A DNA stretch of 64,000 nucleotides, taken from the NCBI RefSeq assembly GCF_057098645.1, contig NZ_CM169472.1, one strand, 5' to 3'. The notes under the pieces are model-generated. The model made no database searches. It was given only the letters and a program-made list of their open reading frames with translations, and had not been told where the DNA came from. Each line of letters opens with the position of its first letter. Positions within the stretch are counted from its first letter, which is position 1. Shown here in pieces: positions 45,366 through 62,627 of this stretch. Made by a program: the position numbers and the translations under genes.

Positions 45366-45378
45366 CCTGCATGTTCAT

Positions 45379-45655
45379 GCCGGATGCGGCGTGAACGCCT
45401 TATCCGGCCTACGAATGGCGCAAGAATCTGTAGGCCTGATAAGCGTAGCGCATCAGGCATTTGTCACCATTGCCGGATGCGGCGTGAACGCCTTATCCGG
45501 CCTACAAGTGGCGCAAGAATTTGTAGGCCTGATAAGCGTAGCGCATCAGGCATTTGTCACCATTGCCGGATGCGGCGTGAACGCCTTATCCGGCCTACGA
45601 GTGGCACGAGAATTTGTAGGCCTGATAAGCGTAGCGCATCAGGCAATTTGGCGTT
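45379..45655. repeat. REP/BIME cluster, three tandem ~60-bp units
   Basis: gccggatgcggcgtgaacgccttatccggcctac ... ctgataagcgtagcgcatcaggca repeated three times; track ORFs here are artefacts of the repeat. Confidence 0.9.
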
Positions 45656-45694: not shown

Positions 45695-46645
45695 ATGAAA
45701 GAGCTTGTGGTCGTTGCCATTGGTGGCAACAGCATTATCAAAGATAACGCCAGCCAGTCGATTGAGCATCAGGCGGAGGCGGTGAAAGCCGTCGCCGATA
45801 CGGTGCTGGAAATGCTGGCTTCCGATTACGACATTGTGCTGACCCACGGTAACGGGCCGCAGGTCGGGCTGGATTTACGCCGTGCGGAGATTGCCCACGA
45901 GCGCGAAGGGCTCCCCTTAACGCCGCTGGCGAACTGTGTGGCGGATACGCAAGGTGGCATTGGCTATCTGATCCAGCAGGCGCTGAACAATCGACTGGCG
46001 CGCCACGGCGAGAAAAAAGCCGTCACCGTGGTGACTCAGGTGGAAGTGGATAAAAACGATCCGGGATTTGCCCATCCCACCAAGCCCATCGGCGCATTCT
46101 TCAGTGAAATCCAGCGTGACGAATTACAAAAGGCAAACCCTGACTGGCGTTTTGTTGAAGATGCCGGACGAGGCTATCGCCGCGTGGTCGCCTCGCCGGA
46201 ACCGAAACGTATTGTCGAAGCACCGGCCATTAAGGCGCTGATCCAGCAAGGCTTTGTGGTGATTGGCGCGGGCGGTGGCGGAATTCCTGTGGTGCGTACT
46301 GACGCGGGAGATTACCAAAGCGTGGACGCGGTTATCGACAAAGATCTCTCTACCGCGCTACTGGCCCGTGAAATTCACGCCGACATTCTTGTGATCACCA
46401 CTGGCGTGGAAAAAGTGTGTATTCACTTTGGCAAACCCGAGCAGCAGGCGCTGGATCGCGTAGATATTGCCACTATGACCCGCTATATGCAGGAAGGGCA
46501 TTTCCCGCCCGGCAGCATGTTGCCAAAAATCATCGCCAGCCTGACGTTCCTGGAACAGGGCGGTAAAGAAGTGATTATCACCACGCCGGAATGCCTGCCA
46601 GCGGCGCTGCGCGGTGAAACGGGCACCCACATTATTAAAACGTAA
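45695..46645 (+). CDS. yahI: carbamate kinase-like protein YahI
   Basis: 316 aa amino-acid-kinase fold (VVAIGGNS, THGNGPQVG). Confidence 0.9.
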   Translation: MKELVVVAIGGNSIIKDNASQSIEHQAEAVKAVADTVLEMLASDYDIVLTHGNGPQVGLDLRRAEIAHEREGLPLTPLANCVADTQGGIGYLIQQALNNRLARHGEKKAVTVVTQVEVDKNDPGFAHPTKPIGAFFSEIQRDELQKANPDWRFVEDAGRGYRRVVASPEPKRIVEAPAIKALIQQGFVVIGAGGGGIPVVRTDAGDYQSVDAVIDKDLSTALLAREIHADILVITTGVEKVCIHFGKPEQQALDRVDIATMTRYMQEGHFPPGSMLPKIIASLTFLEQGGKEVIITTPECLPAALRGETGTHIIKT

Positions 46646-46654
46646 GGACGTAAG

Positions 46655-48037
46655 ATGAAAGAAAACAATAGCCGCCGTGAATTTCTGAGCCAGAGCGGTA
46701 AGATGGTCACCGCCGCCGCGCTGTTTGGTACCTCTGTGCCGTTCGCCCATGCGGCGGTCTCTGGCACCACAAACTGCGAAGCGAACAACACCATGAAAAT
46801 CACTGACCCGCATTACTATCTCGACAACGTGCTGCTGGAAACTGGATTTGACTACGAAAATGGCGTGGCGGTTCAGACCCGCACGGCGCGCCAGACCGTG
46901 GAGATTCAGAACGGCAAAATTGTCGCGCTGCGCGAGAATAAGCAGCACCCGGATGCCACGCTGCCGCACTATGACGCTGGCGATAAGCTGATGCTGCCCA
47001 CCACCCGCGACATGCATATTCATCTCGACAAAACCTTCTACGGCGGGCCGTGGCGCTCGCTCAATCGTTCGGCAGGCACCACTATCCAGGACATGATCAA
47101 ACTCGAGCAGAAAATGCTGCCGGAGTTACAACCGTATACGCAGGAGCGGGCGGAAAAACTGATCGATCTATTGCAGTCGAAAGGCACCACCATTGCCCGC
47201 AGCCACTGCAATATCGAACCGGTTTCCGGCCTGAAAAATCTGCAAAATTTGCAGGCGGTGCTGGCGCGGCGTCAGGCGGGCTTCGAGTGTGAAATCGTCG
47301 CCTTCCCGCAGCACGGTTTGCTGCTGTCGAAATCGGAACCCTTAATGCGCGAAGCGATGCAGGCGGGGGCGCATTACGTCGGCGGGCTGGACCCGACCAG
47401 TGTCGATGGCGCGATGGAAAAATCCCTCGACACCATGTTCCAGATTGCGCTGGACTACGACAAAGGCGTCGATATTCACCTGCACGAAACCACTCCGTCG
47501 GGCGTGGCAGCCATCAATTATATGGTTGAAACGGTAGAGAAAACGCCGCAACTGAAAGGTAAGCTGACCATCAGCCACGCCTTTGCGCTGGCTACGCTCA
47601 ACGAACAACAGGTCGATGCGCTGGCGAATCGGATGGCGGCGCAGCAAATTTCTATCGCCTCGACGGTGCCGATTGGCACGCTGCATATGCCGCTCAAACA
47701 GTTGCACGACAAAGGCGTAAAAGTGATGACTGGCACTGACAGCGTTATCGACCACTGGTCGCCTTATGGTCTGGGCGACATGCTGGAAAAAGCCAATCTC
47801 TACGCGCAGCTCTATATTCGTCCTAACGAACAGAACCTCTCCCGTTCGCTGTTTTTAGCCACTGGCGATGTATTGCCGCTGAATGAAAAAGGCGAGCGTG
47901 TATGGCCAAAAGCGCAGGATGACGCCAGCTTTGTGCTGGTGGACGCCTCCTGTTCCGCCGAGGCGGTGGCGCGTATCTCGCCGAGAACCGCAACGTTCCA
48001 TAAAGGGCAACTGGTGTGGGGGAGTGTGGCAGGTTGA
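46655..48037 (+). CDS. yahJ: amidohydrolase-family protein YahJ with Tat-type signal peptide
   Basis: SRREFLS twin-arginine motif then hydrophobic region; metal-dependent hydrolase His motifs (HIHLD). Confidence 0.85.
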   Translation: MKENNSRREFLSQSGKMVTAAALFGTSVPFAHAAVSGTTNCEANNTMKITDPHYYLDNVLLETGFDYENGVAVQTRTARQTVEIQNGKIVALRENKQHPDATLPHYDAGDKLMLPTTRDMHIHLDKTFYGGPWRSLNRSAGTTIQDMIKLEQKMLPELQPYTQERAEKLIDLLQSKGTTIARSHCNIEPVSGLKNLQNLQAVLARRQAGFECEIVAFPQHGLLLSKSEPLMREAMQAGAHYVGGLDPTSVDGAMEKSLDTMFQIALDYDKGVDIHLHETTPSGVAAINYMVETVEKTPQLKGKLTISHAFALATLNEQQVDALANRMAAQQISIASTVPIGTLHMPLKQLHDKGVKVMTGTDSVIDHWSPYGLGDMLEKANLYAQLYIRPNEQNLSRSLFLATGDVLPLNEKGERVWPKAQDDASFVLVDASCSAEAVARISPRTATFHKGQLVWGSVAG

Positions 48038-48413
48038 TGCGCATTTGAAACGCCTGCAACGGTGAATAGTAAGAGATTTAAGCCCCAGGGAGTGGGGCAA
48101 TCTGAATATGAGTGTGTCGGCAGAAATGGACATTATCTTTGAGGAATATGCCCTTATTGACGTTGTGTAGATAACTATTTGTCTACGTGAAAAGATCATC
48201 AGTTTTGCCGATTTTAGTCTTTTACGGATAGCAAATATCACACTTATAGGCGCTCGCCTTATGGGGAACGTTGCTGCTCTGTTTCATTCAGGCTCGTGGC
48301 ATGTTGGGGCTGGATCGGGTGGTTTAAATATTGGCTATATTCAATGGACGCGTTTTGCCGCGATGACATATCAGGCATCGCCAAATACACATAGCTAATC
48401 AGGAGTAAACACA

Positions 48414-49463
48414 ATGAAGATCAAAGCTGTTGGTGCATATTCCGCTAAACAACCACTTGAACCGATGGATATCACCCGGCGTGAACCGGGACCGAATGAT
48501 GTCAAAATCGAAATCGCTTACTGTGGCGTCTGCCATTCCGATCTCCACCAGGTCCGTTCCGAGTGGGCGGGGACGGTTTACCCCTGCGTGCCGGGTCATG
48601 AAATTGTGGGGCGTGTGGTAGCCGTTGGTGATCAGGTAGAAAAACATGCGCTGGGCGATCTGGTCGGTGTCGGCTGCATTGTCGACAGTTGTAAACATTG
48701 CGAAGAGTGTGAAGACGGGCTGGAAAACTACTGTGATCACATGACCGGCACCTATAACTCGCCGACGCCGGACGAACCGGGCCATACTCTGGGCGGCTAC
48801 TCACAACAGATCGTCGTTCATGAGCGATATGTTCTGCGTATTCGTCACCCGCAAGAGCAGCTGGCGGCGGTGGCTCCTTTGTTGTGTGCAGGGATCACCA
48901 CGTATTCGCCGCTACGTCACTGGCAGGCCGGGCCGGGTAAAAAAGTGGGCGTGGTCGGCATCGGCGGTCTGGGACATATGGGGATTAAGCTGGCCCACGC
49001 GATGGGGGCACATGTGGTGGCATTTACCACTTCTGAGGCAAAACGCGAAGCGGCAAAAGCCCTGGGGGCCGATGAAGTTGTTAACTCACGCAATGCCGAT
49101 GAGATGGCGGCTCATCTGAAGAGTTTCGATTTCATTTTGAATACAGTAGCTGCGCCACATAATCTCGACGATTTTACCACCTTGCTGAAGCGTGATGGCA
49201 CCATGACGCTGGTTGGTGCGCCTGCGACACCGCATAAATCGCCGGAAGTTTTCAACCTGATCATGAAACGCCGTGCGATAGCCGGTTCTATGATTGGCGG
49301 CATTCCAGAAACTCAGGAGATGCTCGATTTTTGCGCCGAACATGGCATCGTGGCTGATATAGAGATGATTCGGGCCGATCAAATTAATGAAGCCTATGAG
49401 CGAATGCTGCGCGGTGATGTGAAATATCGTTTTGTTATCGATAATCGCACACTAACAGACTGA
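48414..49463 (+). CDS. yahK: zinc-dependent NADPH aldehyde reductase YahK
   Basis: GHEIVGRV zinc-ADH signature, GIGGLGHMG Rossmann motif. Confidence 0.9.
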   Translation: MKIKAVGAYSAKQPLEPMDITRREPGPNDVKIEIAYCGVCHSDLHQVRSEWAGTVYPCVPGHEIVGRVVAVGDQVEKHALGDLVGVGCIVDSCKHCEECEDGLENYCDHMTGTYNSPTPDEPGHTLGGYSQQIVVHERYVLRIRHPQEQLAAVAPLLCAGITTYSPLRHWQAGPGKKVGVVGIGGLGHMGIKLAHAMGAHVVAFTTSEAKREAAKALGADEVVNSRNADEMAAHLKSFDFILNTVAAPHNLDDFTTLLKRDGTMTLVGAPATPHKSPEVFNLIMKRRAIAGSMIGGIPETQEMLDFCAEHGIVADIEMIRADQINEAYERMLRGDVKYRFVIDNRTLTD

Positions 49464-49705
49464 AAAAATTAATAAATACCCTGTGGTTTAACATATTAAC
49501 TTCGCTCTCCACTTAACTTTTTAGTTAAGGAGAGCGAAATAATATCAAAGTAGCAGTAAAACCTATAACGTAAATTCAAATTGTTAAATTAACTCCCTCC
49601 AGTACACAATACTTCTCACGTTAGTTATGAGCGATTTCTGATAGTGCCTGGTTTAATTAGAGCTTTATTATCTGCGACGTTTATTTTTATTTAAGAGAGA
49701 TCGCG

Positions 49706-50521
49706 ATGATATCATTAAAAGCTCCGCGCAATAATTTGATGCCATATACGCAACAAAGCATACTTAATACGGTTAAAAACAATCAGTTACCAGAGGATAT
49801 CAAAAGCCCCCTGGTTTCCTGTGTCGATATATTCAAGGTTTTGATTAAACAATATTATGATTATCCTTATGATTGTCGTGATGATTTAGTCGATGACGAC
49901 AAACTCATTCATCTCATGGCTGCCGTACGAGACTGTGAGTGGTCAGACGATAACGCACTCACCATAAATGTGCAGTTTAATGATTTCCCTGGATTTTATG
50001 ACTGGATGGATTACCCTGATCACCCGGTTAAGTTTGTTTTTCGCATACTTGAAAATCAAAAAGGGACAGTTTGGGTATATGACCAGGATGATGCGTTTCT
50101 TGATATTAAAGCAAATGTGCAGGCTGGACGCTTTACCGGGCTTAAGAAATTAGTGCAGTTTATCGATTCAGTGCGAACAGATTGCAAATGTATTCTTCTT
50201 GAACACCATATGCCTTTGCTGAGAATTTTCCCTAAAGGGAAAGAGTGTATGCATGTGGAAAAATGGCTTCGCGAAATGTCGTCTATTCCGGAGACAGACG
50301 CGCCCATTAAGCAGGCGCTTGCGCATGGATTATTATTACACTTAAAAAATATCTACCCTGTTTTTCCTGAATCACTGGTGATGTTATTGCTCTCTGTTCT
50401 GGACGTAAAAACATACAGAGATGATGCGCGATTAAATCAATGGATATCTAATAGAGTCCAGGAATTAGGTGACAGATATTATCCTGTAAATAAGCACGTT
50501 AAAATCCGCTACACTCTTTAG
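49706..50521 (+). CDS. yahL: uncharacterized protein YahL
   Basis: 271 aa ORF preceded by AT-rich promoter region. Confidence 0.7.
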   Translation: MISLKAPRNNLMPYTQQSILNTVKNNQLPEDIKSPLVSCVDIFKVLIKQYYDYPYDCRDDLVDDDKLIHLMAAVRDCEWSDDNALTINVQFNDFPGFYDWMDYPDHPVKFVFRILENQKGTVWVYDQDDAFLDIKANVQAGRFTGLKKLVQFIDSVRTDCKCILLEHHMPLLRIFPKGKECMHVEKWLREMSSIPETDAPIKQALAHGLLLHLKNIYPVFPESLVMLLLSVLDVKTYRDDARLNQWISNRVQELGDRYYPVNKHVKIRYTL

Positions 50522-50933
50522 GTCAGAAAGGGTTCCACCTGCAAGTTGTTATTCCACCAGAGAGTGAATCGCAATGCAGGTAATCATTTCATCTGTATAT
50601 CCGTATGCCAAATGGCATTCCACCGCCTTTTTCGCCGATATTTTGTTGTGATCGGCGACGCTTCGCTTAAAAAAGCACCAGCTGTGGTTTTGCAGCTATG
50701 CGGTGTATAAAAAATGATCTCATGCAGATGTTTTGTGAATGTGTGGGTTGACATTCATATGAAAAAAATCATAATTCCATCATGTTTGTGTGGGGTCTTT
50801 TCTGTACCTTACGCATCGCACTCAAGCCTGACAGAAAATATGCTGTAAGGCTCATATCAAAAACCGCCATTAGCTCATCAGGAAGAGCAGACGACAACCA
50901 GGATTGTTGTATGGTACGGGGTTCGAGGCCTCG

Positions 50934-51179
50934 ATGGCGGTCCAACTTTTCAAAACTCTTCTGAATCAGATCCCCTTATTATCATCCCTGCAAAGTGGAA
51001 CATTGCCATTGTTTGGCTATTCAGGACGGGTCAGACCAATGAAAAAAGCCCACACAGGGGAGAGTGGGCTGAAATGGGAAGCTAAAGACTCAAGTAAACT
51101 TATCGGAAATAAGGACCACGCATTACGGGGGCTATCATCGCCGATGGTCGGGATTCGGCAAATCAGGTTGATTACGTAG
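50934..51179 (+). CDS. yahM: small uncharacterized protein YahM (81 aa)
   Basis: In-frame Met within track ORF 50904..51179 gives the 81-aa length I recall; weak. Confidence 0.4.
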   Translation: MAVQLFKTLLNQIPLLSSLQSGTLPLFGYSGRVRPMKKAHTGESGLKWEAKDSSKLIGNKDHALRGLSSPMVGIRQIRLIT

Positions 51180-51195
51180 AGAGTAAATTATCTGC

Positions 51196-51867
51196 TCACC
51201 GCTGCGTCACCCCTTCGTAAATCAGGCGTAGCGCGAATACACCAATAATTGCACCAATAACCCGACTGGCAACGCGTTGCATACGCCCATAAGCACGACG
51301 CACAGCGGGCAAAGAAAACGCCTGACTAAGAAAGACTCGCCAGATAACTGATGCGAGTACAATCCCCGCCCAGGCCATTAAACGTGCCCATGTTGGTGTT
51401 TCGGCATTTAATGTTACTGAGAAAATACTAATAAAAAATAAAACGGTTTGCGGGTTAGAGAGATCGGTAATTAATCCACGGCGAAAAAAGACATACCAGG
51501 GGGCGTTAATCGGTTGTTGTAGTGTGCTCATTTGCGGTGTTGACTGGCGGCGCATGCTGCACCACGCAAACCATAAGAGATAAGCGCCGCCGACGATTCT
51601 GATAAGCGAAAAAATCTCCTCACACTGCGTAATTAGCGTTGCAAGACCAAACAAACCCAACCCGGAATAAAATGCATCGCCCAGCGCCACGCCCAGCCCG
51701 GTCAGCACCCCTGCGCGTCGACCGGAAGCCAGGCTGGTTTGTACTACCACAAAGAGATTGGCTCCCGGATTAAAAAAAGTAATCACGAACAGTCCCACGG
51801 TCAGGTAAACGGCGTGCAAAGGCTCCATAGTGATTTCATCCATAAATAAGTGAAGTAACTTCATCAT
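51196..51867 (-). CDS. yahN: LysE/RhtB-family amino-acid exporter YahN
   Basis: 223 aa, multiple TM helices. Confidence 0.85.
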   Translation of the reverse strand: MMKLLHLFMDEITMEPLHAVYLTVGLFVITFFNPGANLFVVVQTSLASGRRAGVLTGLGVALGDAFYSGLGLFGLATLITQCEEIFSLIRIVGGAYLLWFAWCSMRRQSTPQMSTLQQPINAPWYVFFRRGLITDLSNPQTVLFFISIFSVTLNAETPTWARLMAWAGIVLASVIWRVFLSQAFSLPAVRRAYGRMQRVASRVIGAIIGVFALRLIYEGVTQR

Positions 51868-52013
51868 ATTTCTACCAAAAATAATCGGGTGCGAGAGAGA
51901 TCACAAAGTGTCTTATTTCCGGTTACTGGCGTTTATGCCCTGACTGAACTAATTATTAATCAACCCAATAATGTCGGTGGGTGATAGTGTGATAACAACT
52001 CTGGAGCCGTAAT

Positions 52014-52289
52014 ATGAAAATAATCTCTAAAATGTTAGTCGGTGCGTTAGCGTTTGCCGTTACCAATGTCTATGCCGCTGAATTGATGACTAAAGCGGAA
52101 TTTGAAAAAGTCGAATCGCAATATGAAAAAATAGGTGATATTTCAACCAGCAATGAAATGTCGACCGCAGACGCGAAAGAAGATTTGATCAAAAAAGCGG
52201 ATGAAAAAGGGGCTGATGTGTTGGTACTGACCTCCGGTCAAACTGACAATAAGATCCACGGCACGGCAAATATTTATAAGAAGAAGTAA
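52014..52289 (+). CDS. yahO: periplasmic DUF1471 protein YahO
   Basis: 91 aa with signal peptide [21 protein letters not shown]. Confidence 0.85.
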
Positions 52290-52386
52290 TTCTGAATCCT
52301 ATGTAAACATCCCCGATGCGTAAGTTTATCGGTGATCATCTATTGAAATTTATGCCGGATAAAGCGTTCGCGCTGCATTCGGCAGT

Positions 52387-53973
52387 TCAGTTTTTCAGCC
52401 GCCGCCAGAACGTCGTCCGGCTGATGCCTAAATAATTCGCCGCTGCTGTTTTATCGCCTTTAAATTTCTCCAGTGCCTGTTGTGGTGTCAGCAAGCGTGG
52501 AGCGGGAATTTTCGCCGACTCGCGCGCCAGTTCCGGCAGTAGCAGCTGCAAAAACTGCGGCGTTAAATCCGGCGTCGGTTCCACACTTAAAAACAGCGCC
52601 AGTCGCTCCATCATATTGCGCAGTTCTCGAATATTGCCCGGCCAGTCGTAGCGCAGCAGCACAGTTTCACTTGCCTGTAACCCCTGGCGTAATGCAGCAG
52701 AAAATGGGGCGGAGAGCGCCGCCAGAGACACTTTCAAAAAACTTTCCGCCAGTGGCAGAATATCTGCCACCCGCTCGCGCAGTGGTGGCAATTGCAGACG
52801 CAAAATACTCAGCCGATAAAACAGATCACGGCGAAACTGCCCTTGCCGCATATCTTCTTCCAGATTGCAGTGAGTGGCGCTAATGACCCGCACATCCACC
52901 GGAACAGGCTGATGCCCGCCGACGCGGGTGACCTCTTTTTCTTCCAGCACCCGTAACAGGCGAGTCTGCAAAGGTAGCGGCATTTCGCCAATCTCATCCA
53001 GAAACAGCGTACCGCCGTGGGCAATTTCAAACAGCCCGGCACGACCTCCGCGTCGCGAGCCGGTAAACGCCCCTTCCTCATAGCCAAACAGCTCCGCTTC
53101 CAGCAGCGATTCGGCAATCGCCCCGCAGTTGACGGCAACAAACGGATGCGACTTTTTGCCCTGTCGCGCATCGTGGCGGGCAAAATATTCCCGATGAATT
53201 GCCTGGGCCGCCAGCTCTTTGCCCGTCCCCGTTTCCCCCTCAATCAACACCGCTGCACTGGAGCGGGCATACAGCAAAATAGTCTGCCGTACTTGTTCCA
53301 TCTGTGGTGATTGACCGAGCATATCGCCCAGCACGTAACGAGTTCTCAGGGCGTTGCGGGTGGCATCGTGAGTGTTATGGCGTAACGACATGCGCGTCAT
53401 ATCCAGCGCATCGCTGAACGCCTGGCGCACGGTGGCGGCGGAATAGATAAAAATTCCGGTCATTCCGGCTTCTTCTGCCAGATCGGTAATCAGCCCCGCG
53501 CCGACCACCGCTTCGGTGCCGTTAGCTTTTAGCTCGTTAATCTGCCCGCGTGCGTCTTCTTCGGTAATGTAGCTACGTTGATCGAGGCGCAAATTAAAGG
53601 TTTTTTGAAACGCCACCAGTGCCGGAATAGTTTCCTGATAAGTGACAACGCCGATAGAAGAGGTGAGCTTTCCGGCTTTTGCCAGTGCCTGTAACACATC
53701 GTAGCCGCTCGGTTTAATCAAAATAACTGGCACTGACAGGCGGCTTTTCAGGTACGCGCCGTTAGAGCCAGCGGCGATGATGGCGTCGCAGCGTTCGTTT
53801 GCCAGTTTCTTGCGGATATAGGTCACTGCTTTTTCAAAGCCAAGCTGGATAGGGGTAATGTTCGCCAGGTGATCAAACTCGAGGCTGATATCGCGAAACA
53901 GCTCGAACAGGCGCGTTACAGATACCGTCCAGATAACCGGTTTGTCGTCATTAAGCCGTGGTGGATGTGCCAT
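52387..53973 (-). CDS. prpR: sigma-54-dependent propionate regulon activator PrpR
   Basis: AAA+ sigma-54 activator motifs GETGTGKE and GAFTG, C-terminal HTH; start at MAHPPRL (528 aa). Confidence 0.95.
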
Positions 53974-54149
53974 AGCGCACCGCAAAGTTAAGAAACCGAA
54001 TATTGGGTTTAGTCTTGTTTCATAATTGTTGCAATGAAACGCGGTGAAACATTGCCTGAAACGTTAACTGAAACGCATATTTGCGGATTAGTTCATGACT
54101 TTATCTCTAACAAATTGAAATTAAAGATTTAATTTTATTAAGGCAATTG

Positions 54150-54166
54150 TGGCACACCCCTTGCTA
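54150..54166 (+). promoter_or_regulatory. sigma-54 (-24/-12) promoter of prpBCDE
   Basis: TGGCAC-N5-TTGCT at 54150-54165, about 50 nt upstream of prpB start. Confidence 0.75.
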
Positions 54167-54211
54167 TGTGTTTATCAACGCAAATAACAAGTTGATAACA
54201 AAGGATGGGCT

Positions 54212-55102
54212 ATGTCTCTACACTCTCCAGGTAAAGCGTTTCGCGCTGCACTGTCTAAAGAAAATCCATTGCAGATTGTTGGCACCATTAACGCCAACCA
54301 TGCGCTGTTGGCGCAGCGTGCCGGATATCAGGCAATTTATCTCTCCGGCGGTGGCGTGGCGGCAGGTTCGCTGGGGCTGCCCGATCTCGGTATTTCTACT
54401 CTTGATGACGTGTTGACCGATATTCGCCGTATCACCGACGTTTGTTCGCTGCCGCTGCTGGTGGATGCGGATATCGGTTTTGGTTCTTCTGCTTTTAACG
54501 TGGCGCGCACCGTGAAATCGATGATTAAAGCCGGTGCGGCAGGATTGCATATTGAAGATCAGGTTGGTGCGAAACGCTGCGGTCATCGTCCGAATAAAGC
54601 GATCGTCTCGAAAGAGGAGATGGTGGATCGGATCCGTGCGGCGGTGGATGCGAAAACCGATCCTGATTTTGTGATCATGGCGCGCACCGATGCGCTGGCG
54701 GTAGAGGGGCTGGATGCGGCGATCGAGCGTGCGCAGGCCTATGTTGAAGCGGGTGCCGAGATGTTGTTCCCGGAGGCGATTACCGAACTCGCCATGTACC
54801 GCCAGTTTGCCGATGCGGTGCAGGTGCCAATCCTCGCCAATATTACCGAATTTGGTGCCACGCCGCTGTTTACCACCGACGAATTACGCAGCGCCCATGT
54901 CGCAATGGCGCTGTACCCGCTTTCAGCGTTCCGCGCCATGAACCGCGCCGCTGAACATGTCTACAACGTCCTGCGCCAGGAAGGCACGCAGAAAAGCGTC
55001 ATCGACACCATGCAGACCCGCAACGAGCTGTACGAAAGCATCAACTACTACCAGTACGAAGAGAAGCTCGACGACCTGTTTGCCCGTAGCCAGGTGAAAT
55101 AA
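54212..55102 (+). CDS. prpB: 2-methylisocitrate lyase
   Basis: 296 aa, isocitrate-lyase/PEP-mutase fold (KRCGH motif). Confidence 0.95.
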
Positions 55103-55146
55103 AACACAACGAAAAATATCTCGACCCTACAAATGACGAGGACAAT

Positions 55147-56316
55147 ATGAGAGACACAACGATCCTGCAAAACAGTACCCATGTCATTAAACCGAAAAAA
55201 TCGGTAGCACTTTCTGGCGTTCCGGCGGGCAATACGGCGCTCTGCACCGTGGGTAAAAGTGGCAATGACCTGCATTACCGCGGCTACGATATTCTTGATC
55301 TGGCGGAACATTGCGAATTTGAAGAAGTGGCGCATCTGTTGATCCACGGCAAACTGCCGACCCGTGACGAACTCGCCGCTTACAAAACAAAACTGAAAGC
55401 CCTGCGCGGTTTACCGGCTAATGTGCGTACTGTGCTGGAAGCCTTACCGGCGGCGTCGCACCCGATGGATGTTATGCGCACCGGCGTTTCCGCGCTCGGC
55501 TGCACGCTGCCAGAAAAAGAGGGGCATACCGTCTCTGGCGCGCGGGATATTGCCGACAAACTGCTGGCGTCACTTAGCTCGATTCTTCTCTACTGGTATC
55601 ACTACAGCCACAACGGCGAACGCATCCAGCCGGAAACCGATGACGACTCCATCGGTGGTCACTTCCTGCATCTGCTGCACGGCGAAAAGCCGTCGCAAAG
55701 CTGGGAAAAGGCGATGCATATTTCGCTGGTGCTGTACGCCGAACACGAGTTTAACGCCTCCACCTTTACCAGCCGGGTGATTGCGGGCACCGGCTCTGAT
55801 ATGTATTCCGCGATTATTGGCGCGATTGGTGCACTGCGCGGGCCGAAGCACGGCGGGGCGAATGAAGTGTCGCTGGAGATCCAGCAACGCTACGAAACGC
55901 CGGACGAAGCCGAAGCCGATATCCGCAAGCGGGTGGAAAACAAAGAAGTGGTCATTGGTTTTGGTCATCCGGTTTATACCATCGCCGACCCGCGCCACCA
56001 GGTGATTAAACGTGTGGCGAAGCAGCTCTCGCAGGAAGGCGGCTCGCTGAAGATGTACAACATCGCCGATCGCCTGGAAACGGTGATGTGGGAAACGAAA
56101 AAGATGTTCCCCAATCTCGACTGGTTCTCCGCTGTTTCCTACAACATGATGGGCGTTCCCACCGAGATGTTCACACCACTGTTTGTTATCGCCCGCGTCA
56201 CCGGCTGGGCGGCGCACATTATCGAACAACGTCAGGACAACAAAATTATCCGTCCTTCCGCCAATTATGTTGGACCGGAAGACCGCCAGTTTGTCGCGCT
56301 GGATAAGCGCCAGTAA
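55147..56316 (+). CDS. prpC: 2-methylcitrate synthase
   Basis: 389 aa citrate-synthase family. Confidence 0.95.
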
Positions 56317-56349
56317 ACCTCTACGAATAACAATAAGGAAACGTACCCA

Positions 56350-57801
56350 ATGTCAGCTCAAATCAACAACATCCGCCCGGAATTTGATCGTGAAATCGTT
56401 GATATCGTCGATTACGTCATGAACTACGAAATCAGTTCCAGAGTGGCCTACGACACCGCCCATTACTGCCTGCTCGACACGCTCGGCTGCGGTCTGGAAG
56501 CTCTCGAATACCCGGCCTGTAAAAAACTGCTGGGGCCAATTGTTCCGGGCACCGTCGTACCTAACGGCGTGCGCGTCCCCGGAACTCAGTTCCAGCTCGA
56601 CCCCGTCCAGGCGGCATTTAACATCGGCGCGATGATCCGTTGGCTCGATTTCAACGATACCTGGCTGGCGGCGGAGTGGGGGCATCCTTCCGACAACCTC
56701 GGCGGCATTCTGGCAACGGCGGACTGGCTTTCACGCAACGCGGTCGCCAGCGGCAAAGCGCCGTTGACCATGAAACAAGTGCTGACCGGAATGATTAAAG
56801 CTCATGAAATTCAGGGCTGCATCGCGCTGGAAAACTCCTTTAACCGCGTTGGCCTCGACCACGTTCTGTTAGTGAAAGTGGCTTCCACCGCCGTGGTCGC
56901 CGAAATGCTTGGCCTGACCCGCGAGGAAATTCTCAACGCCGTTTCGCTGGCGTGGGTGGACGGTCAGTCGCTGCGCACCTATCGCCATGCGCCGAACACC
57001 GGCACGCGTAAATCCTGGGCGGCGGGCGATGCCACTTCCCGCGCGGTACGTCTGGCACTGATGGCGAAAACGGGCGAAATGGGTTACCCGTCAGCCCTGA
57101 CTGCGCCGGTGTGGGGCTTCTACGACGTCTCCTTTAAAGGTGAGTCGTTCCGCTTCCAGCGTCCGTACGGTTCTTACGTGATGGAAAATGTGCTGTTCAA
57201 AATCTCCTTCCCGGCGGAGTTCCACTCCCAGACGGCAGTTGAAGCGGCGATGACGCTCTATGAACAGATGCAAGCAGCAGGCAAAACGGCGGCGGATATC
57301 GAAAAAGTGACCATTCGCACCCACGAAGCCTGTATTCGCATCATCGACAAAAAAGGGCCGCTCAATAACCCGGCTGACCGCGACCACTGCATTCAATACA
57401 TGGTGGCGATCCCGCTGTTGTTCGGGCGCTTAACGGCGGCAGATTACGAGGACAACGTTGCGCAAGATAAACGCATCGACGCCCTGCGCGAGAAGATCAA
57501 TTGCTTTGAAGATCCGACGTTTACCGCTGACTACCACGACCCGGAAAAACGCGCCATCGCCAATGCCATTACTCTTGAGTTCACCGACGGCACGCGCTTT
57601 GAAGAAGTTGTGGTGGAGTACCCCATTGGTCATGCTCGCCGCCGTCAGGATGGCATTCCGAAGCTGGTGGATAAATTCAAAATCAATCTCGCGCGCCAGT
57701 TCCCGACTCGCCAGCAGCAGCGCATTCTGGAGGTTTCTCTCGACAGAGCTCGCCTGGAACAGATGCCGGTCAATGAGTATCTCGACCTGTACGTCATTTA
57801 A
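56350..57801 (+). CDS. prpD: 2-methylcitrate dehydratase
   Basis: 483 aa MmgE/PrpD family. Confidence 0.95.
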
Positions 57802-57840
57802 GTAAACGGCGGTAAGGCGTAAGTTCAACAGGAGAGCATT

Positions 57841-59727
57841 ATGTCTTTTAGCGAATTTTATCAGCGTTCGATTAACGAACCGGAGCAGTTCTGGGCCGAG
57901 CAGGCCCGGCGTATTGACTGGCAGACGCCCTTTACGCAAACGCTCGATCACAGCAATCCGCCGTTTGCCCGTTGGTTTTGTGAAGGCCGAACCAACTTGT
58001 GTCACAACGCTATCGATCGCTGGCTGGAGAAACAGCCAGAGGCGCTGGCGCTGATTGCCGTCTCTTCGGAAACAGAAGAAGAGCGCACCTTTACCTTTCG
58101 CCAGCTTCATGACGAAGTAAACGCGGTGGCGTCAATGCTGCGCTCGCTGGGCGTGCAGCGTGGCGATCGGGTGCTGGTGTATATGCCGATGATTGCCGAA
58201 GCGCATATTACCCTGCTGGCCTGCGCGCGCATTGGCGCTATTCACTCGGTGGTGTTTGGTGGATTTGCCTCGCACAGCGTGGCGGCGCGAATTGATGATG
58301 CTAAACCGGTGCTGATTGTCTCGGCTGATGCCGGAGCGCGCGGTGGCAAAATCATTCCCTATAAAAAATTGCTCGACGATGCGATAAGTCAGGCGCAGCA
58401 CCAGCCGCGCCATGTTTTGCTGGTGGATCGCGGGCTGGCGAAAATGGCGCGCGTCAGCGGGCGGGATGTCGATTTCGCGTCGTTGCGCCATCAACACATC
58501 GGCGCGCGGGTACCGGTGGCGTGGCGGGAATCCAACGAAACCTCCTGCATTCTCTACACCTCCGGCACGACCGGCAAACCTAAAGGCGTGCAGCGTGACG
58601 TCGGCGGATATGCGGTGGCGCTGGCGACCTCGATGGACACCATTTTTGGCGGCAAAGCGGGCGGTGTGTTCTTTTGTGCTTCGGATATCGGCTGGGTGGT
58701 GGGGCATTCGTATATCGTCTACGCGCCGCTGCTGGCGGGGATGGCGACTATCGTTTACGAAGGATTACCGACCTGGCCGGACTGCGGCGTGTGGTGGAAA
58801 ATCGTCGAGAAATATCAGGTTAGCCGGATGTTTTCAGCGCCGACCGCCATTCGCGTGCTGAAAAAATTCCCTACCGCTGAAATTCGTAAACACGATCTCT
58901 CGTCGCTGGAAGTGCTCTATCTGGCTGGAGAACCGCTGGACGAGCCGACCGCCAGTTGGGTGAGCAATACGCTGGATGTGCCGGTCATCGACAACTACTG
59001 GCAGACCGAATCCGGCTGGCCGATTATGGCGATTGCTCGCGGTCTGGACGACAGGCCGACGCGTCTGGGAAGCCCCGGCGTGCCGATGTATGGCTATAAC
59101 GTGCAGTTGCTTAATGAAGTCACCGGCGAACCGTGTGGCGTCAACGAGAAAGGGATGCTGGTGGTGGAAGGGCCGCTGCCGCCGGGGTGTATTCAGACCC
59201 TCTGGGGCGACGACGACCGCTTTGTGAAGACGTACTGGTCGCTGTTTTCCCGCCCGGTGTACGCCACCTTTGACTGGGGCATCCGTGACGCTGACGGTTA
59301 TCACTTTATTCTCGGGCGCACTGACGATGTGATTAACGTTGCCGGGCATCGGCTGGGGACGCGCGAGATTGAAGAGAGTATCTCCAGTCATCCGGGCGTT
59401 GCCGAAGTGGCGGTGGTTGGGGTGAAAGATGCGCTGAAAGGGCAGGTGGCGGTAGCGTTTGTCATTCCGAAAGAGAGCGACAGTCTGGAAGATCGTGATG
59501 TGGCGCATTCGCAAGAGAAGGCGATTATGGCGCTGGTGGACAGCCAGATTGGCAACTTTGGCCGCCCGGCGCACGTCTGGTTTGTCTCGCAATTGCCGAA
59601 AACGCGATCCGGAAAAATGCTGCGCCGCACGATCCAGGCGATTTGCGAAGGACGCGATCCTGGGGATCTGACGACCATTGATGATCCTGCGTCGTTGGAT
59701 CAGATCCGCCAGGCGATGGAAGAGTAA
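57841..59727 (+). CDS. prpE: propionyl-CoA synthetase
   Basis: 628 aa, AMP-binding motif YTSGTTGKPKG. Confidence 0.95.
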   Translation: MSFSEFYQRSINEPEQFWAEQARRIDWQTPFTQTLDHSNPPFARWFCEGRTNLCHNAIDRWLEKQPEALALIAVSSETEEERTFTFRQLHDEVNAVASMLRSLGVQRGDRVLVYMPMIAEAHITLLACARIGAIHSVVFGGFASHSVAARIDDAKPVLIVSADAGARGGKIIPYKKLLDDAISQAQHQPRHVLLVDRGLAKMARVSGRDVDFASLRHQHIGARVPVAWRESNETSCILYTSGTTGKPKGVQRDVGGYAVALATSMDTIFGGKAGGVFFCASDIGWVVGHSYIVYAPLLAGMATIVYEGLPTWPDCGVWWKIVEKYQVSRMFSAPTAIRVLKKFPTAEIRKHDLSSLEVLYLAGEPLDEPTASWVSNTLDVPVIDNYWQTESGWPIMAIARGLDDRPTRLGSPGVPMYGYNVQLLNEVTGEPCGVNEKGMLVVEGPLPPGCIQTLWGDDDRFVKTYWSLFSRPVYATFDWGIRDADGYHFILGRTDDVINVAGHRLGTREIEESISSHPGVAEVAVVGVKDALKGQVAVAFVIPKESDSLEDRDVAHSQEKAIMALVDSQIGNFGRPAHVWFVSQLPKTRSGKMLRRTIQAICEGRDPGDLTTIDDPASLDQIRQAMEE

Positions 59728-59733
59728 GGTATT

Positions 59734-59810
59734 GTCGGATGCGTCGCGTGGCGCATCCGACAGTTGTGCGCAGATGCCTGATGCGACGCTGGCGCGTCTT
59801 ATCATGCCTG
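59734..59810. repeat. REP elements downstream of prpE
   Basis: gtcggatgcg...cgcatccgac and gcctgatgcgacgctggcgcgtcttatca REP-type palindromes. Confidence 0.8.
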
Positions 59811-59962
59811 CCCACTGTTTTTACACCGATAATTTTCCCCCACCTTTTTGCACTCATTCATATAAAAAATATATTTCCCCACGAAAACGATTGCTTTTTA
59901 TCTTCAGATGAATAGAATACGGCGGATTTTTTGGGTTTCAAACAGCAAAAAGGGGGAATTTC

Positions 59963-61222
59963 GTGTCGCAAGATAACAACTTTAGCCAGGGGCCAGTCCC
60001 GCAGTCGGCGCGGAAAGGGGTATTGGCATTGATGTTCGTCATGCTGGGATTAACCTTCTTTTCCGCCAGTATGTGGACCGGCGGCACTCTCGGAACCGGT
60101 CTTAGCTATCATGATTTCTTCCTCGCAGTTCTCATCGGCAACCTTCTCCTCGGTATTTACACTTCATTTCTTGGTTACATTGGCGCAAAAACCGGCCTGA
60201 CCACCCATCTTCTTGCTCGCTTTTCGTTTGGTGTTAAAGGCTCATGGCTGCCTTCACTGCTGCTGGGCGGCACCCAGGTTGGCTGGTTTGGCGTCGGTGT
60301 GGCGATGTTTGCTATTCCGGTGGGCAAGGCAACCGGGCTGGATATTAATTTGCTGATTGCCGTTTCCGGTTTACTGATGACCGTCACCGTCTTCTTTGGC
60401 ATTTCGGCGCTGACAGTTCTTTCGGTGATTGCGGTTCCGGCGATCGCCTGTCTTGGCGGTTATTCCGTGTGGCTGGCCGTTAACGGCATGGGCGGCCTGG
60501 ACGCCTTAAAAGCGGTCGTTCCCGCACAACCATTAGATTTCAATGTCGCGCTGGCGCTGGTTGTGGGGTCATTTATCAGTGCGGGTACGCTCACCGCCGA
60601 CTTTGTCCGCTTTGGTCGCAATGCCAAACTGGCGGTGCTGGTGGCGATGGTGGCCTTTTTCCTCGGCAACTCGTTGATGTTTATTTTCGGTGCAGCGGGC
60701 GCTGCGGCACTGGGGATGGCGGATATTTCTGATGTGATGATTGCTCAGGGCCTGCTGTTGCCTGCGATTGTGGTGCTGGGGCTAAATATCTGGACCACCA
60801 ACGATAACGCGCTCTATGCGTCGGGTTTAGGTTTCGCCAACATTACCGGTATGTCGAGCAAAACCCTTTCGGTAATCAACGGTATTATCGGTACGGTCTG
60901 CGCATTATGGCTGTATAACAATTTTGTCGGCTGGTTGACCTTCCTTTCGGCAGCTATTCCTCCGGTAGGTGGCGTGATCATTGCCGACTATCTGATGAAC
61001 CGTCGCCGCTATGAGCACTTTGCGACCACGCGTATGATGAGTGTCAATTGGGTGGCGATTCTGGCGGTCGCCTTGGGGATTGCCGCAGGCCACTGGTTAC
61101 CGGGAATTGTTCCGGTCAACGCGGTATTAGGTGGCGCGCTGAGCTATCTGATCCTTAACCCGATTTTGAATCGTAAAACGACAGCAGCAATGACGCATGT
61201 GGAGGCTAACAGTGTCGAATAA
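59963..61222 (+). CDS. codB: cytosine permease CodB
   Basis: 419 aa, about 12 TM helices; GTG start. Confidence 0.95.
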
Positions 61223-62495
61223 CGCTTTACAAACAATTATTAACGCCCGGTTACCAGGCAAAGAGGGGCTGTGGCAGATTCATCTGCAGGACGGAAAAAT
61301 CAGCGCCATTGATGCGCAATCCGGCGTGATGCCCATAACTGAAAACAGCCTGGATGCCGAACAAGGTTTAGTTATACCGCCGTTTGTGGAGCCACATATT
61401 CACCTGGACACCACGCAAACCGCCGGACAACCGAACTGGAATCAGTCCGGCACGCTGTTTGAAGGCATTGAACGCTGGGCCGAGCGCAAAGCGTTATTAA
61501 CCCATGACGACGTGAAACAACGCGCATGGCAAACGCTGAAATGGCAGATTGCCAACGGCATTCAGCATGTGCGTACCCATGTCGATGTCTCCGACGCAAC
61601 GCTGACTGCGTTGAAAGCGATGCTGGAAGTGAAACAGGAAGTTGCGCCGTGGATTGATCTGCAAATCGTCGCCTTCCCGCAGGAAGGGATTTTGTCGTAT
61701 CCCAACGGTGAAGCGTTGCTGGAAGAGGCGTTACGCTTAGGGGCAGATGTAGTGGGGGCGATTCCGCATTTTGAATTTACCCGTGAATACGGCGTGGAGT
61801 CGCTGCATAAAACCTTCGCCCTGGCGCAAAAATACGACCGTCTCATCGACGTTCACTGTGATGAGATCGATGACGAGCAGTCGCGCTTTGTCGAAACCGT
61901 TGCTGCCCTGGCGCACCGTGAAGGCATGGGCGCGCGAGTCACCGCCAGCCACACCACGGCAATGCACTCCTATAACGGGGCGTATACCTCACGCCTGTTC
62001 CGCTTGCTGAAAATGTCCGGTATTAACTTTGTCGCCAACCCGCTGGTCAATATTCATCTGCAAGGACGTTTCGATACGTATCCAAAACGTCGCGGCATCA
62101 CGCGCGTTAAAGAGATGCTGGAGTCCGGCATTAACGTCTGCTTTGGTCACGATGATGTCTTCGATCCGTGGTATCCGCTGGGAACGGCGAATATGCTGCA
62201 AGTGCTGCATATGGGGCTGCATGTTTGCCAGTTGATGGGCTACGGGCAGATTAACGATGGCCTGAATTTAATCACCCACCACAGCGCAAGGACGTTGAAT
62301 TTGCAGGATTACGGCATTGCCGCCGGAAACAGCGCCAACCTGATTATCCTGCCGGCTGAAAATGGATTTGATGCGCTGCGCCGTCAGGTTCCGGTACGTT
62401 ATTCGGTACGTGGCGGCAAGGTGATTGCCAGCACACAACCGGCACAAACCACCGTATATCTGGAGCAGCCGGAAGCCATCGATTACAAACGGTGA
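61212..62495 (+). CDS. codA: cytosine deaminase CodA
   Basis: GTG start ([14 protein letters not shown]) overlapping codB end; amidohydrolase HxH motif (PHIHLD); 427 aa. Confidence 0.95.
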
Positions 62496-62523: not shown

Positions 62524-62612
62524 GCGTAGTTTATGCCGGATGCGGCGTGAACGCCTTATCCGGCCTACGTAGAGCACCGAACTCGTAGGCCTGATAAGCG
62601 TAGCGCATCAGG
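62524..62612. repeat. REP element pair downstream of codA
   Basis: Same gccggatgcggcgtgaacgccttatccggcctac / ctgataagcgtagcgcatcaggca unit as at 45379. Confidence 0.85.
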
Positions 62613-62627
62613 CAATTGTGTCAGTGG

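Follow-up and report, generated by a model that had tools for sequence, protein, structure and literature searches.

The element TGGCAC-ACCCC-TTGCT, located upstream of prpB in a 64,000-nucleotide stretch of DNA (the window) from an E. coli O145:H28-like chromosome, is almost certainly prpBp, the sigma-54 (RpoN) dependent promoter of the prpBCDE operon, a promoter that is already known, intact and ordinary. Observed directly here were the motif, which is unique in the window and conserved, the cluster of half-sites upstream of it and the intact prpR and prpBCDE genes; for sigma-54 occupancy, reported on the identical K-12 sequence, and for dependence on rpoN, prpR and ihf, reported in Salmonella, the assignment draws on the literature. 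The features of the locus, in coordinates of the window, are listed below.

52387-53973, - strand: prpR, sigma-54-dependent enhancer-binding activator, 528 aa (NF011953, 1009 bits against a cut-off of 703)
53974-54211, no strand: prpR-prpB divergent intergenic control region, 238 bp (direct reading, gene coordinates)
54017-54040, no strand: upstream activator dyad GTTTCAT-N10-ATGAAAC, putative distal PrpR site, centre at about -147 (conservation, published half-site)
54045-54074, no strand: three TGAAAC half-sites (54045-54050, 54057-54062, 54069-54074), putative proximal PrpR site
54095-54145, no strand: AT-rich enhancer-promoter spacer, presumed DNA-bending region (poorly conserved)
54150-54165, + strand: sigma-54 promoter element TGGCAC-ACCCC-TTGCT (direct reading, pattern search, matrix, K-12 motif, conservation)
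54172-54198, no strand: dyad TTATCAAC-N11-GTTGATAA across the predicted +1 and 5' UTR (repeat search, conservation)
54176, + strand: predicted transcription start (+1), leaving a 36-nt 5' UTR (standard sigma-54 spacing)
54202-54205, + strand: Shine-Dalgarno AGGA, 6 nt ahead of the prpB ATG (direct reading)
54212-55102, + strand: prpB, methylisocitrate lyase, 296 aa (NCBIfam equivalog)
55147-56316, + strand: prpC, 2-methylcitrate synthase, 389 aa (NCBIfam equivalog)
56350-57801, + strand: prpD, 2-methylcitrate dehydratase, 483 aa (NCBIfam equivalog)
57841-59727, + strand: prpE, propionate-CoA ligase, 628 aa (NCBIfam equivalog)

By direct reading of the + strand, TGGCAC occupies 54150-54155, the spacer ACCCC 54156-54160 and TTGCT 54161-54165. 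The dinucleotides expected of a sigma-54 promoter, GG at 54151-54152 and GC at 54163-54164, lie exactly one helical turn apart, and the element stands 46 nt ahead of the prpB ATG on the same strand, in promoter orientation. The original prediction had placed TGGCAC-N5-TTGCT at 54150-54165 as a -24/-12 element; direct reading and pattern search found its coordinates, strand and consensus fit to be exact, and the span it assigned to the control region, 54000-54211, falls inside the real intergenic region. The exact pattern occurs once in the 64 kb, counting both strands, where 0.05 matches are expected from 100 dinucleotide shuffles, and permitting one mismatch added only two further matches in the window (12581 and 28121), both devoid of the essential GG. 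A log-odds matrix was derived from the sigma-54 ChIP-seq motifs of E. coli K-12 classed as "intergenic sense" in PMC4591121 (Table 1), with the prpB motif left out and 41 remaining. It ranked 54149-54165 first, at 15.3 bits, among approximately 128,000 window positions on both strands; for scale, the 41 source sites have a median score of 15.75, and the window a mean of -20.3 with a standard deviation of 8.0. The runner-up sigma-54-like motif, TTGGCGCGATTGGTGCA (14.8 bits; 55817-55833, + strand), lies in sense orientation within prpC. It was rejected as a sigma-54 site, being absent from the published K-12 ChIP-seq peaks at both high and low stringency.

The genetic context is that of a complete prp locus. 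The control region is bounded by the ATG of prpR (53973, - strand) and that of prpB (54212), and prpR is divergent from prpB-prpC-prpD-prpE, every gene being full length. All five Prp proteins exceed their NCBIfam equivalog cut-offs, with lengths that agree with the RefSeq annotation. The gene for the cognate enhancer-binding protein adjoins the element in divergent orientation. According to Pfam, PrpR comprises a PrpR_N sensor, a Sigma54_activat domain (PF00158, 1.5e-65), an AAA lid and a C-terminal HTH_8; its AAA+ sigma-54 interaction domain carries the Walker A sequence GETGTGKE, and the loop that contacts sigma-54 is of the GAFTGS version. The presence of Sigma54_activat and of this loop bears out the view that the element is in line with the sigma-54 activator domain of PrpR, and the five full-length genes and the known promoter bear out the further view that this is the expected biology of a 2-methylcitrate cycle operon at an intact locus. 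No terminator was detected in 53900-54300.

Direct evidence of sigma-54 binding comes from K-12, in which a ChIP-seq peak upstream of prpB (b0331), OS01, contains the motif GTGGCACACCCCTTGCT (Bonocora et al., PMC4591121). Its occupancy score was 17-fold above the peak-calling threshold, and the start predicted from it lies 36 nt before prpB. The comparison with the characterized prpBCDE promoter that had been proposed for the site is available at the level of sequence: this 17-mer is identical to 54149-54165, as are the enhancer repeats upstream, and K-12 likewise has a motif centre 55 nt ahead of the ATG and a predicted leader of 36 nt. Reconstituted RpoN holoenzyme also yields an in vitro genomic SELEX peak in the prpR/prpB spacer (Shimada et al., PMC8743547). 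In Salmonella, the ChIP-chip ratio at the orthologous site TGGCATAGCCTTTGCT was 11, and expression of prpBCDE was 45-fold higher in the wild type than in an rpoN deletion when a constitutive activator was supplied (PMC3844500). Reviews that cite Palacios and Escalante-Semerena (2000, 2004), among them PMC5566544, state that Salmonella prpBCDE requires prpR, rpoN (ntrA) and ihf, and that 2-methylcitrate is the co-activator of PrpR in that organism. For E. coli, the prpB promoter was tagged "predicted" rather than "confirmed" by EcoCyc in 2015 (PMC4591121), and the accessible literature yielded neither a mapped E. coli prpB start nor E. coli rpoN-mutant expression data.

Binding does not equal promoter activity (PMC4591121), and many E. 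coli sigma-54 sites are not productive promoters. The site might accordingly bind the holoenzyme and be inert, or serve mainly to occlude or modulate the divergent prpR promoter, a role in keeping with the description of the prpR and prpB promoters as overlapping and divergent (PMC9452892) and with a weak sigma-70-like pair, TAAACA-N17-CACAAT, which runs on the - strand from 54174 to 54146 and overlaps the sigma-54 site. We regard this as very improbable. The orientation of the element, the 36-nt leader, the adjacent gene for the cognate activator and the enhancer repeats all fit a productive promoter; the Salmonella operon is strongly rpoN-dependent; and E. coli prpR together with PprpB makes up a working propionate-inducible expression system, as described in PMC5566544 and PMC9452892. 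Moreover, the hexamers of the - strand pair match at only 8 of 12 positions, Citrobacter and Salmonella do not conserve them, and for lack of conservation the pair was rejected as a prpR promoter.

The assignment of 54150-54165 as prpBp is further supported by comparison across species. A PrpB scan with one genome per species provided 80 loci from other species, in 78 of which TGGYAY-N5-TTGCN, with at most two mismatches, was found upstream of prpB. These 78 loci span Enterobacteriaceae, Morganellaceae (Photorhabdus, Xenorhabdus, Providencia and Morganella) and the beta-proteobacterial Oxalobacteraceae, and the two loci without the element belong to one Pseudomonas and one Paraburkholderia. 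The distance from element to prpB is 38-88 nt in 76 of the 78, and approximately 188 nt in two Providencia loci. Alignment of 14 enterobacterial spacers gave a mean identity of only 64%, with four conserved islands: GTTTCAT-N10-ATGAAAC (54017-54040), CTGAAACGTTARCTGAMACGC (54056-54076), the -24/-12 element itself, and a leader element, TAACAAGTTGATAAC. The weakest alternative, that the motif is a chance match without promoter function and that prpBCDE is driven by a CRP-activated sigma-70 promoter, could appeal to the occurrence of such matches in 5 of the 100 window shuffles and to reports of CRP dependence of the prp promoters, but it is exceedingly improbable and, in view of the published occupancy and the conservation, as good as refuted, since the 0.05 matches expected over the 128 kb of both strands amount to roughly 1e-4 on the + strand of the spacer, the element is kept while flanking DNA diverges, the identical K-12 sequence is bound by sigma-54, and a sigma-70 scan of 53900-54300 found no sigma-70-like -35/-10 promoter.

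Upstream of prpBp, the hexamer GTTTCA/TGAAAC, which the published PrpR enhancer CGTTTCATGAAACG (PMC4987338, Table 1) has as its half-site, marks the probable sites of PrpR action. Across the window this hexamer is present at about the frequency expected by chance (43 copies against 39.6), and five copies are packed into the 58 bp from 54017 to 54074, at -156 to -104 relative to the predicted start and thus within the roughly 80-200 bp typical of upstream activator sites at sigma-54 promoters. Nearly all related prpB loci, across families, have similar clusters between -100 and -230. The dyad GTTTCAT-N10-ATGAAAC is kept in Escherichia, Citrobacter, Kluyvera, Pluralibacter and Salmonella, its left arm alone in Pseudocitrobacter and Shimwellia, and the core of the putative proximal site, CTGAAACGTTAACTGAAACGC (54056-54076), coincides with a conserved island. 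From half-site matches and conservation we infer which of these copies PrpR would occupy in E. coli. A single extra copy, GTTTCA in many Xenorhabdus and TGAAAC in Janthinobacterium, was noted past the predicted prpB start, approximately 16 nt downstream and at equal distance in two distant lineages (loci L027, L031, L040, L043, L046-L058 and others).

The Salmonella prpR-prpBCDE locus offers a close parallel, sharing the divergent prpR, a -24/-12 element 47 nt ahead of prpB, and GTTTCA/TGAAAC half-sites that include the dyad GTTTCAT-N10-ATGAAAC. Several differences are also apparent. Salmonella and Citrobacter have TGGCAT in place of the TGGCAC of the E. coli window, and most of the Citrobacter/Salmonella group (14 Citrobacter loci, Pluralibacter and S. 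arizonae) possess a contiguous palindrome, GTTTCATGAAAC, whose left half is degenerate in E. coli (ATTGCCTGAAAC), where additional direct TGAAAC copies are found at 54045 and 54069. The same arrangement, without the contiguous palindrome and with extra direct TGAAAC instead, is seen in both E. coli and E. albertii (54017-54074, compared with loci L008-L024). The Salmonella enhancer also lies 25-40 bp farther from its promoter than that of E. coli. PMC5566544 describes the output of the E. coli propionate system as three-fold weaker than that of the Salmonella system, and the layout of the E. coli enhancer may relate to this difference.

The AT-rich tract between enhancer and promoter is less informative. 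An IHF bending site in this position is common, though not universal, at sigma-54 promoters. A consensus scan of the interval revealed no convincing consensus IHF site; weak candidates at 54108-54120 (- strand) and 54119-54134, at -48 to -62, each depart by one mismatch from WATCAANNNNTTR and are poorly conserved. The requirement for IHF was established in Salmonella only, according to the literature cited in PMC5566544. Dependence of the prp promoters on CRP is attributed to Lee et al. (2005) in reviews (PMC5566544, PMC9452892); in a consensus scan the best CRP match reached 7 of 10 positions, at -1.5, and the remainder 6 of 10, and the published CRP site was not locatable by consensus. The positions of IHF and CRP binding considered here are thus putative. 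A CT-rich "insulator," an idea advanced for sigma-54 promoters, was also considered and set aside; the preprint concerned (10.1101/086108) does not mention prp.

Transcription is predicted to begin at 54176, 12 nt past the C of the GC dinucleotide and 19 nt past the motif centre. PMC4591121 places sigma-54 starts 19 nt beyond the centre of the motif, which gives this position; standard -12 spacing leads to the same nucleotide, and the "distance 36" listed for prpB in Table 1 of that study agrees with the 36-nt leader. The exact +1, derived in this way from spacing, should be read as a predicted coordinate. The dyad that spans it (54172-54198) has as its right arm an exact IHF consensus, TATCAACTTGTTA, on the - strand at 54185-54197, centred at about +15. 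This is the sole exact IHF consensus found in the control region, and it is kept in 17 species representatives of Escherichia, Citrobacter and Kluyvera; Salmonella, unlike E. coli, has no exact consensus at +15. As RNA, the prpB leader folds no better than its shuffled counterparts (z=+0.73), and it has no Rfam match at E<=1. It is conceivable, but we think unlikely, that the dyad acts downstream of the sigma-54 start as a regulatory site not described before. Such a site, bound by IHF or another protein, could tune open-complex formation or promoter escape, and the leader dyad and the rearranged PrpR half-sites together might be a reason for the weaker performance of the E. coli system relative to that of Salmonella.

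A more general likeness exists to other sigma-54 catabolic promoters under ligand-sensing enhancer-binding proteins, such as atoC-atoDAEB (CTGGCACTCCCCTTGCT, OS21), which has the same class of promoter, a nearly identical -24/-12 element and an activator of the NtrC/AAA+ family. The two systems differ in activator, enhancer and signal: PrpR has the PrpR_N domain and no receiver domain, and senses 2-methylcitrate. By the mechanism we propose for prpBp, sigma-54 RNA polymerase would bind the -24 GG and -12 GC and be held as a closed complex, while PrpR, divergently encoded, would bind the GTTTCA/TGAAAC repeats 104-156 bp upstream. Propionate would be turned by PrpE and PrpC into 2-methylcitrate, which would bind the N-terminal domain of PrpR; the AAA+ domain of PrpR would then reach sigma-54 via the GAFTGS loop, with DNA looping over the AT-rich spacer (assisted by IHF in Salmonella), and ATP hydrolysis would open the promoter. 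Transcription would proceed from near 54176, producing the 36-nt leader before prpB, with catabolite control presumably added by cAMP-CRP.

At the level of strains, a 401-bp query taken around the site matches RM9872 and related strains at 100% identity, and across the 16,401 positions of 45900-62300 the window and RM9872 differ at 6. Of 5426 complete E. coli genomes, 5218 have the prpR-prpB spacer and the other 208 (about 4%) show no match to it; the spacer is at least 99% identical to that of the window in only 74 of 5220 E. coli records. The K-12 spacer is 98.7% identical over 238 bp, the window differing by three substitutions: G for C at 54132, A for T at 54166 (-10) and G for C at 54170 (-6). 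The last two are the sole differences from K-12 close to the promoter. All three positions vary among aligned strains and species, and since this includes -10 and -6 there are no grounds for expecting a functional effect, though the substitutions of the O145 lineage at those two positions could alter promoter strength slightly. The core bases of the -24/-12 element are invariant in five aligned E. coli strains, with UPEC 536 altered in the N5 spacer. In one further E. coli genome (SCPM-O-B-9504; locus L006, 1903-3951), two copies of IS1A truncate prpR and cut the prpR-prpB spacer, and the locus is rearranged beside yahB and pdeL.

Upstream of the prp locus the window is not collinear with RM9872, the closest record found, with a 1637-bp offset at its start (1-1637); the breakpoints, located around an IS3-family element and an autotransporter pseudogene, are at about 23157 and about 24466. 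An imperfect repeat of approximately 90 bp (88-96% identity) occurs in tandem near yahG-yahI (45378-45650) and again downstream of codA (62529-62623), and is probably a REP/BIME-type element.

The significance of these results hardly extends past quality control: this O145:H28-like E. coli carries an intact propionate (2-methylcitrate cycle) locus with an intact control region, and its sigma-54 promoter was correctly recognizable from raw sequence alone. The promoter is already in use, in the propionate-inducible pPro expression and biosensor system. While it adds no new biology, the comparative map assembled here, of half-site layout, distances and the conserved leader element, could aid those who engineer pPro.
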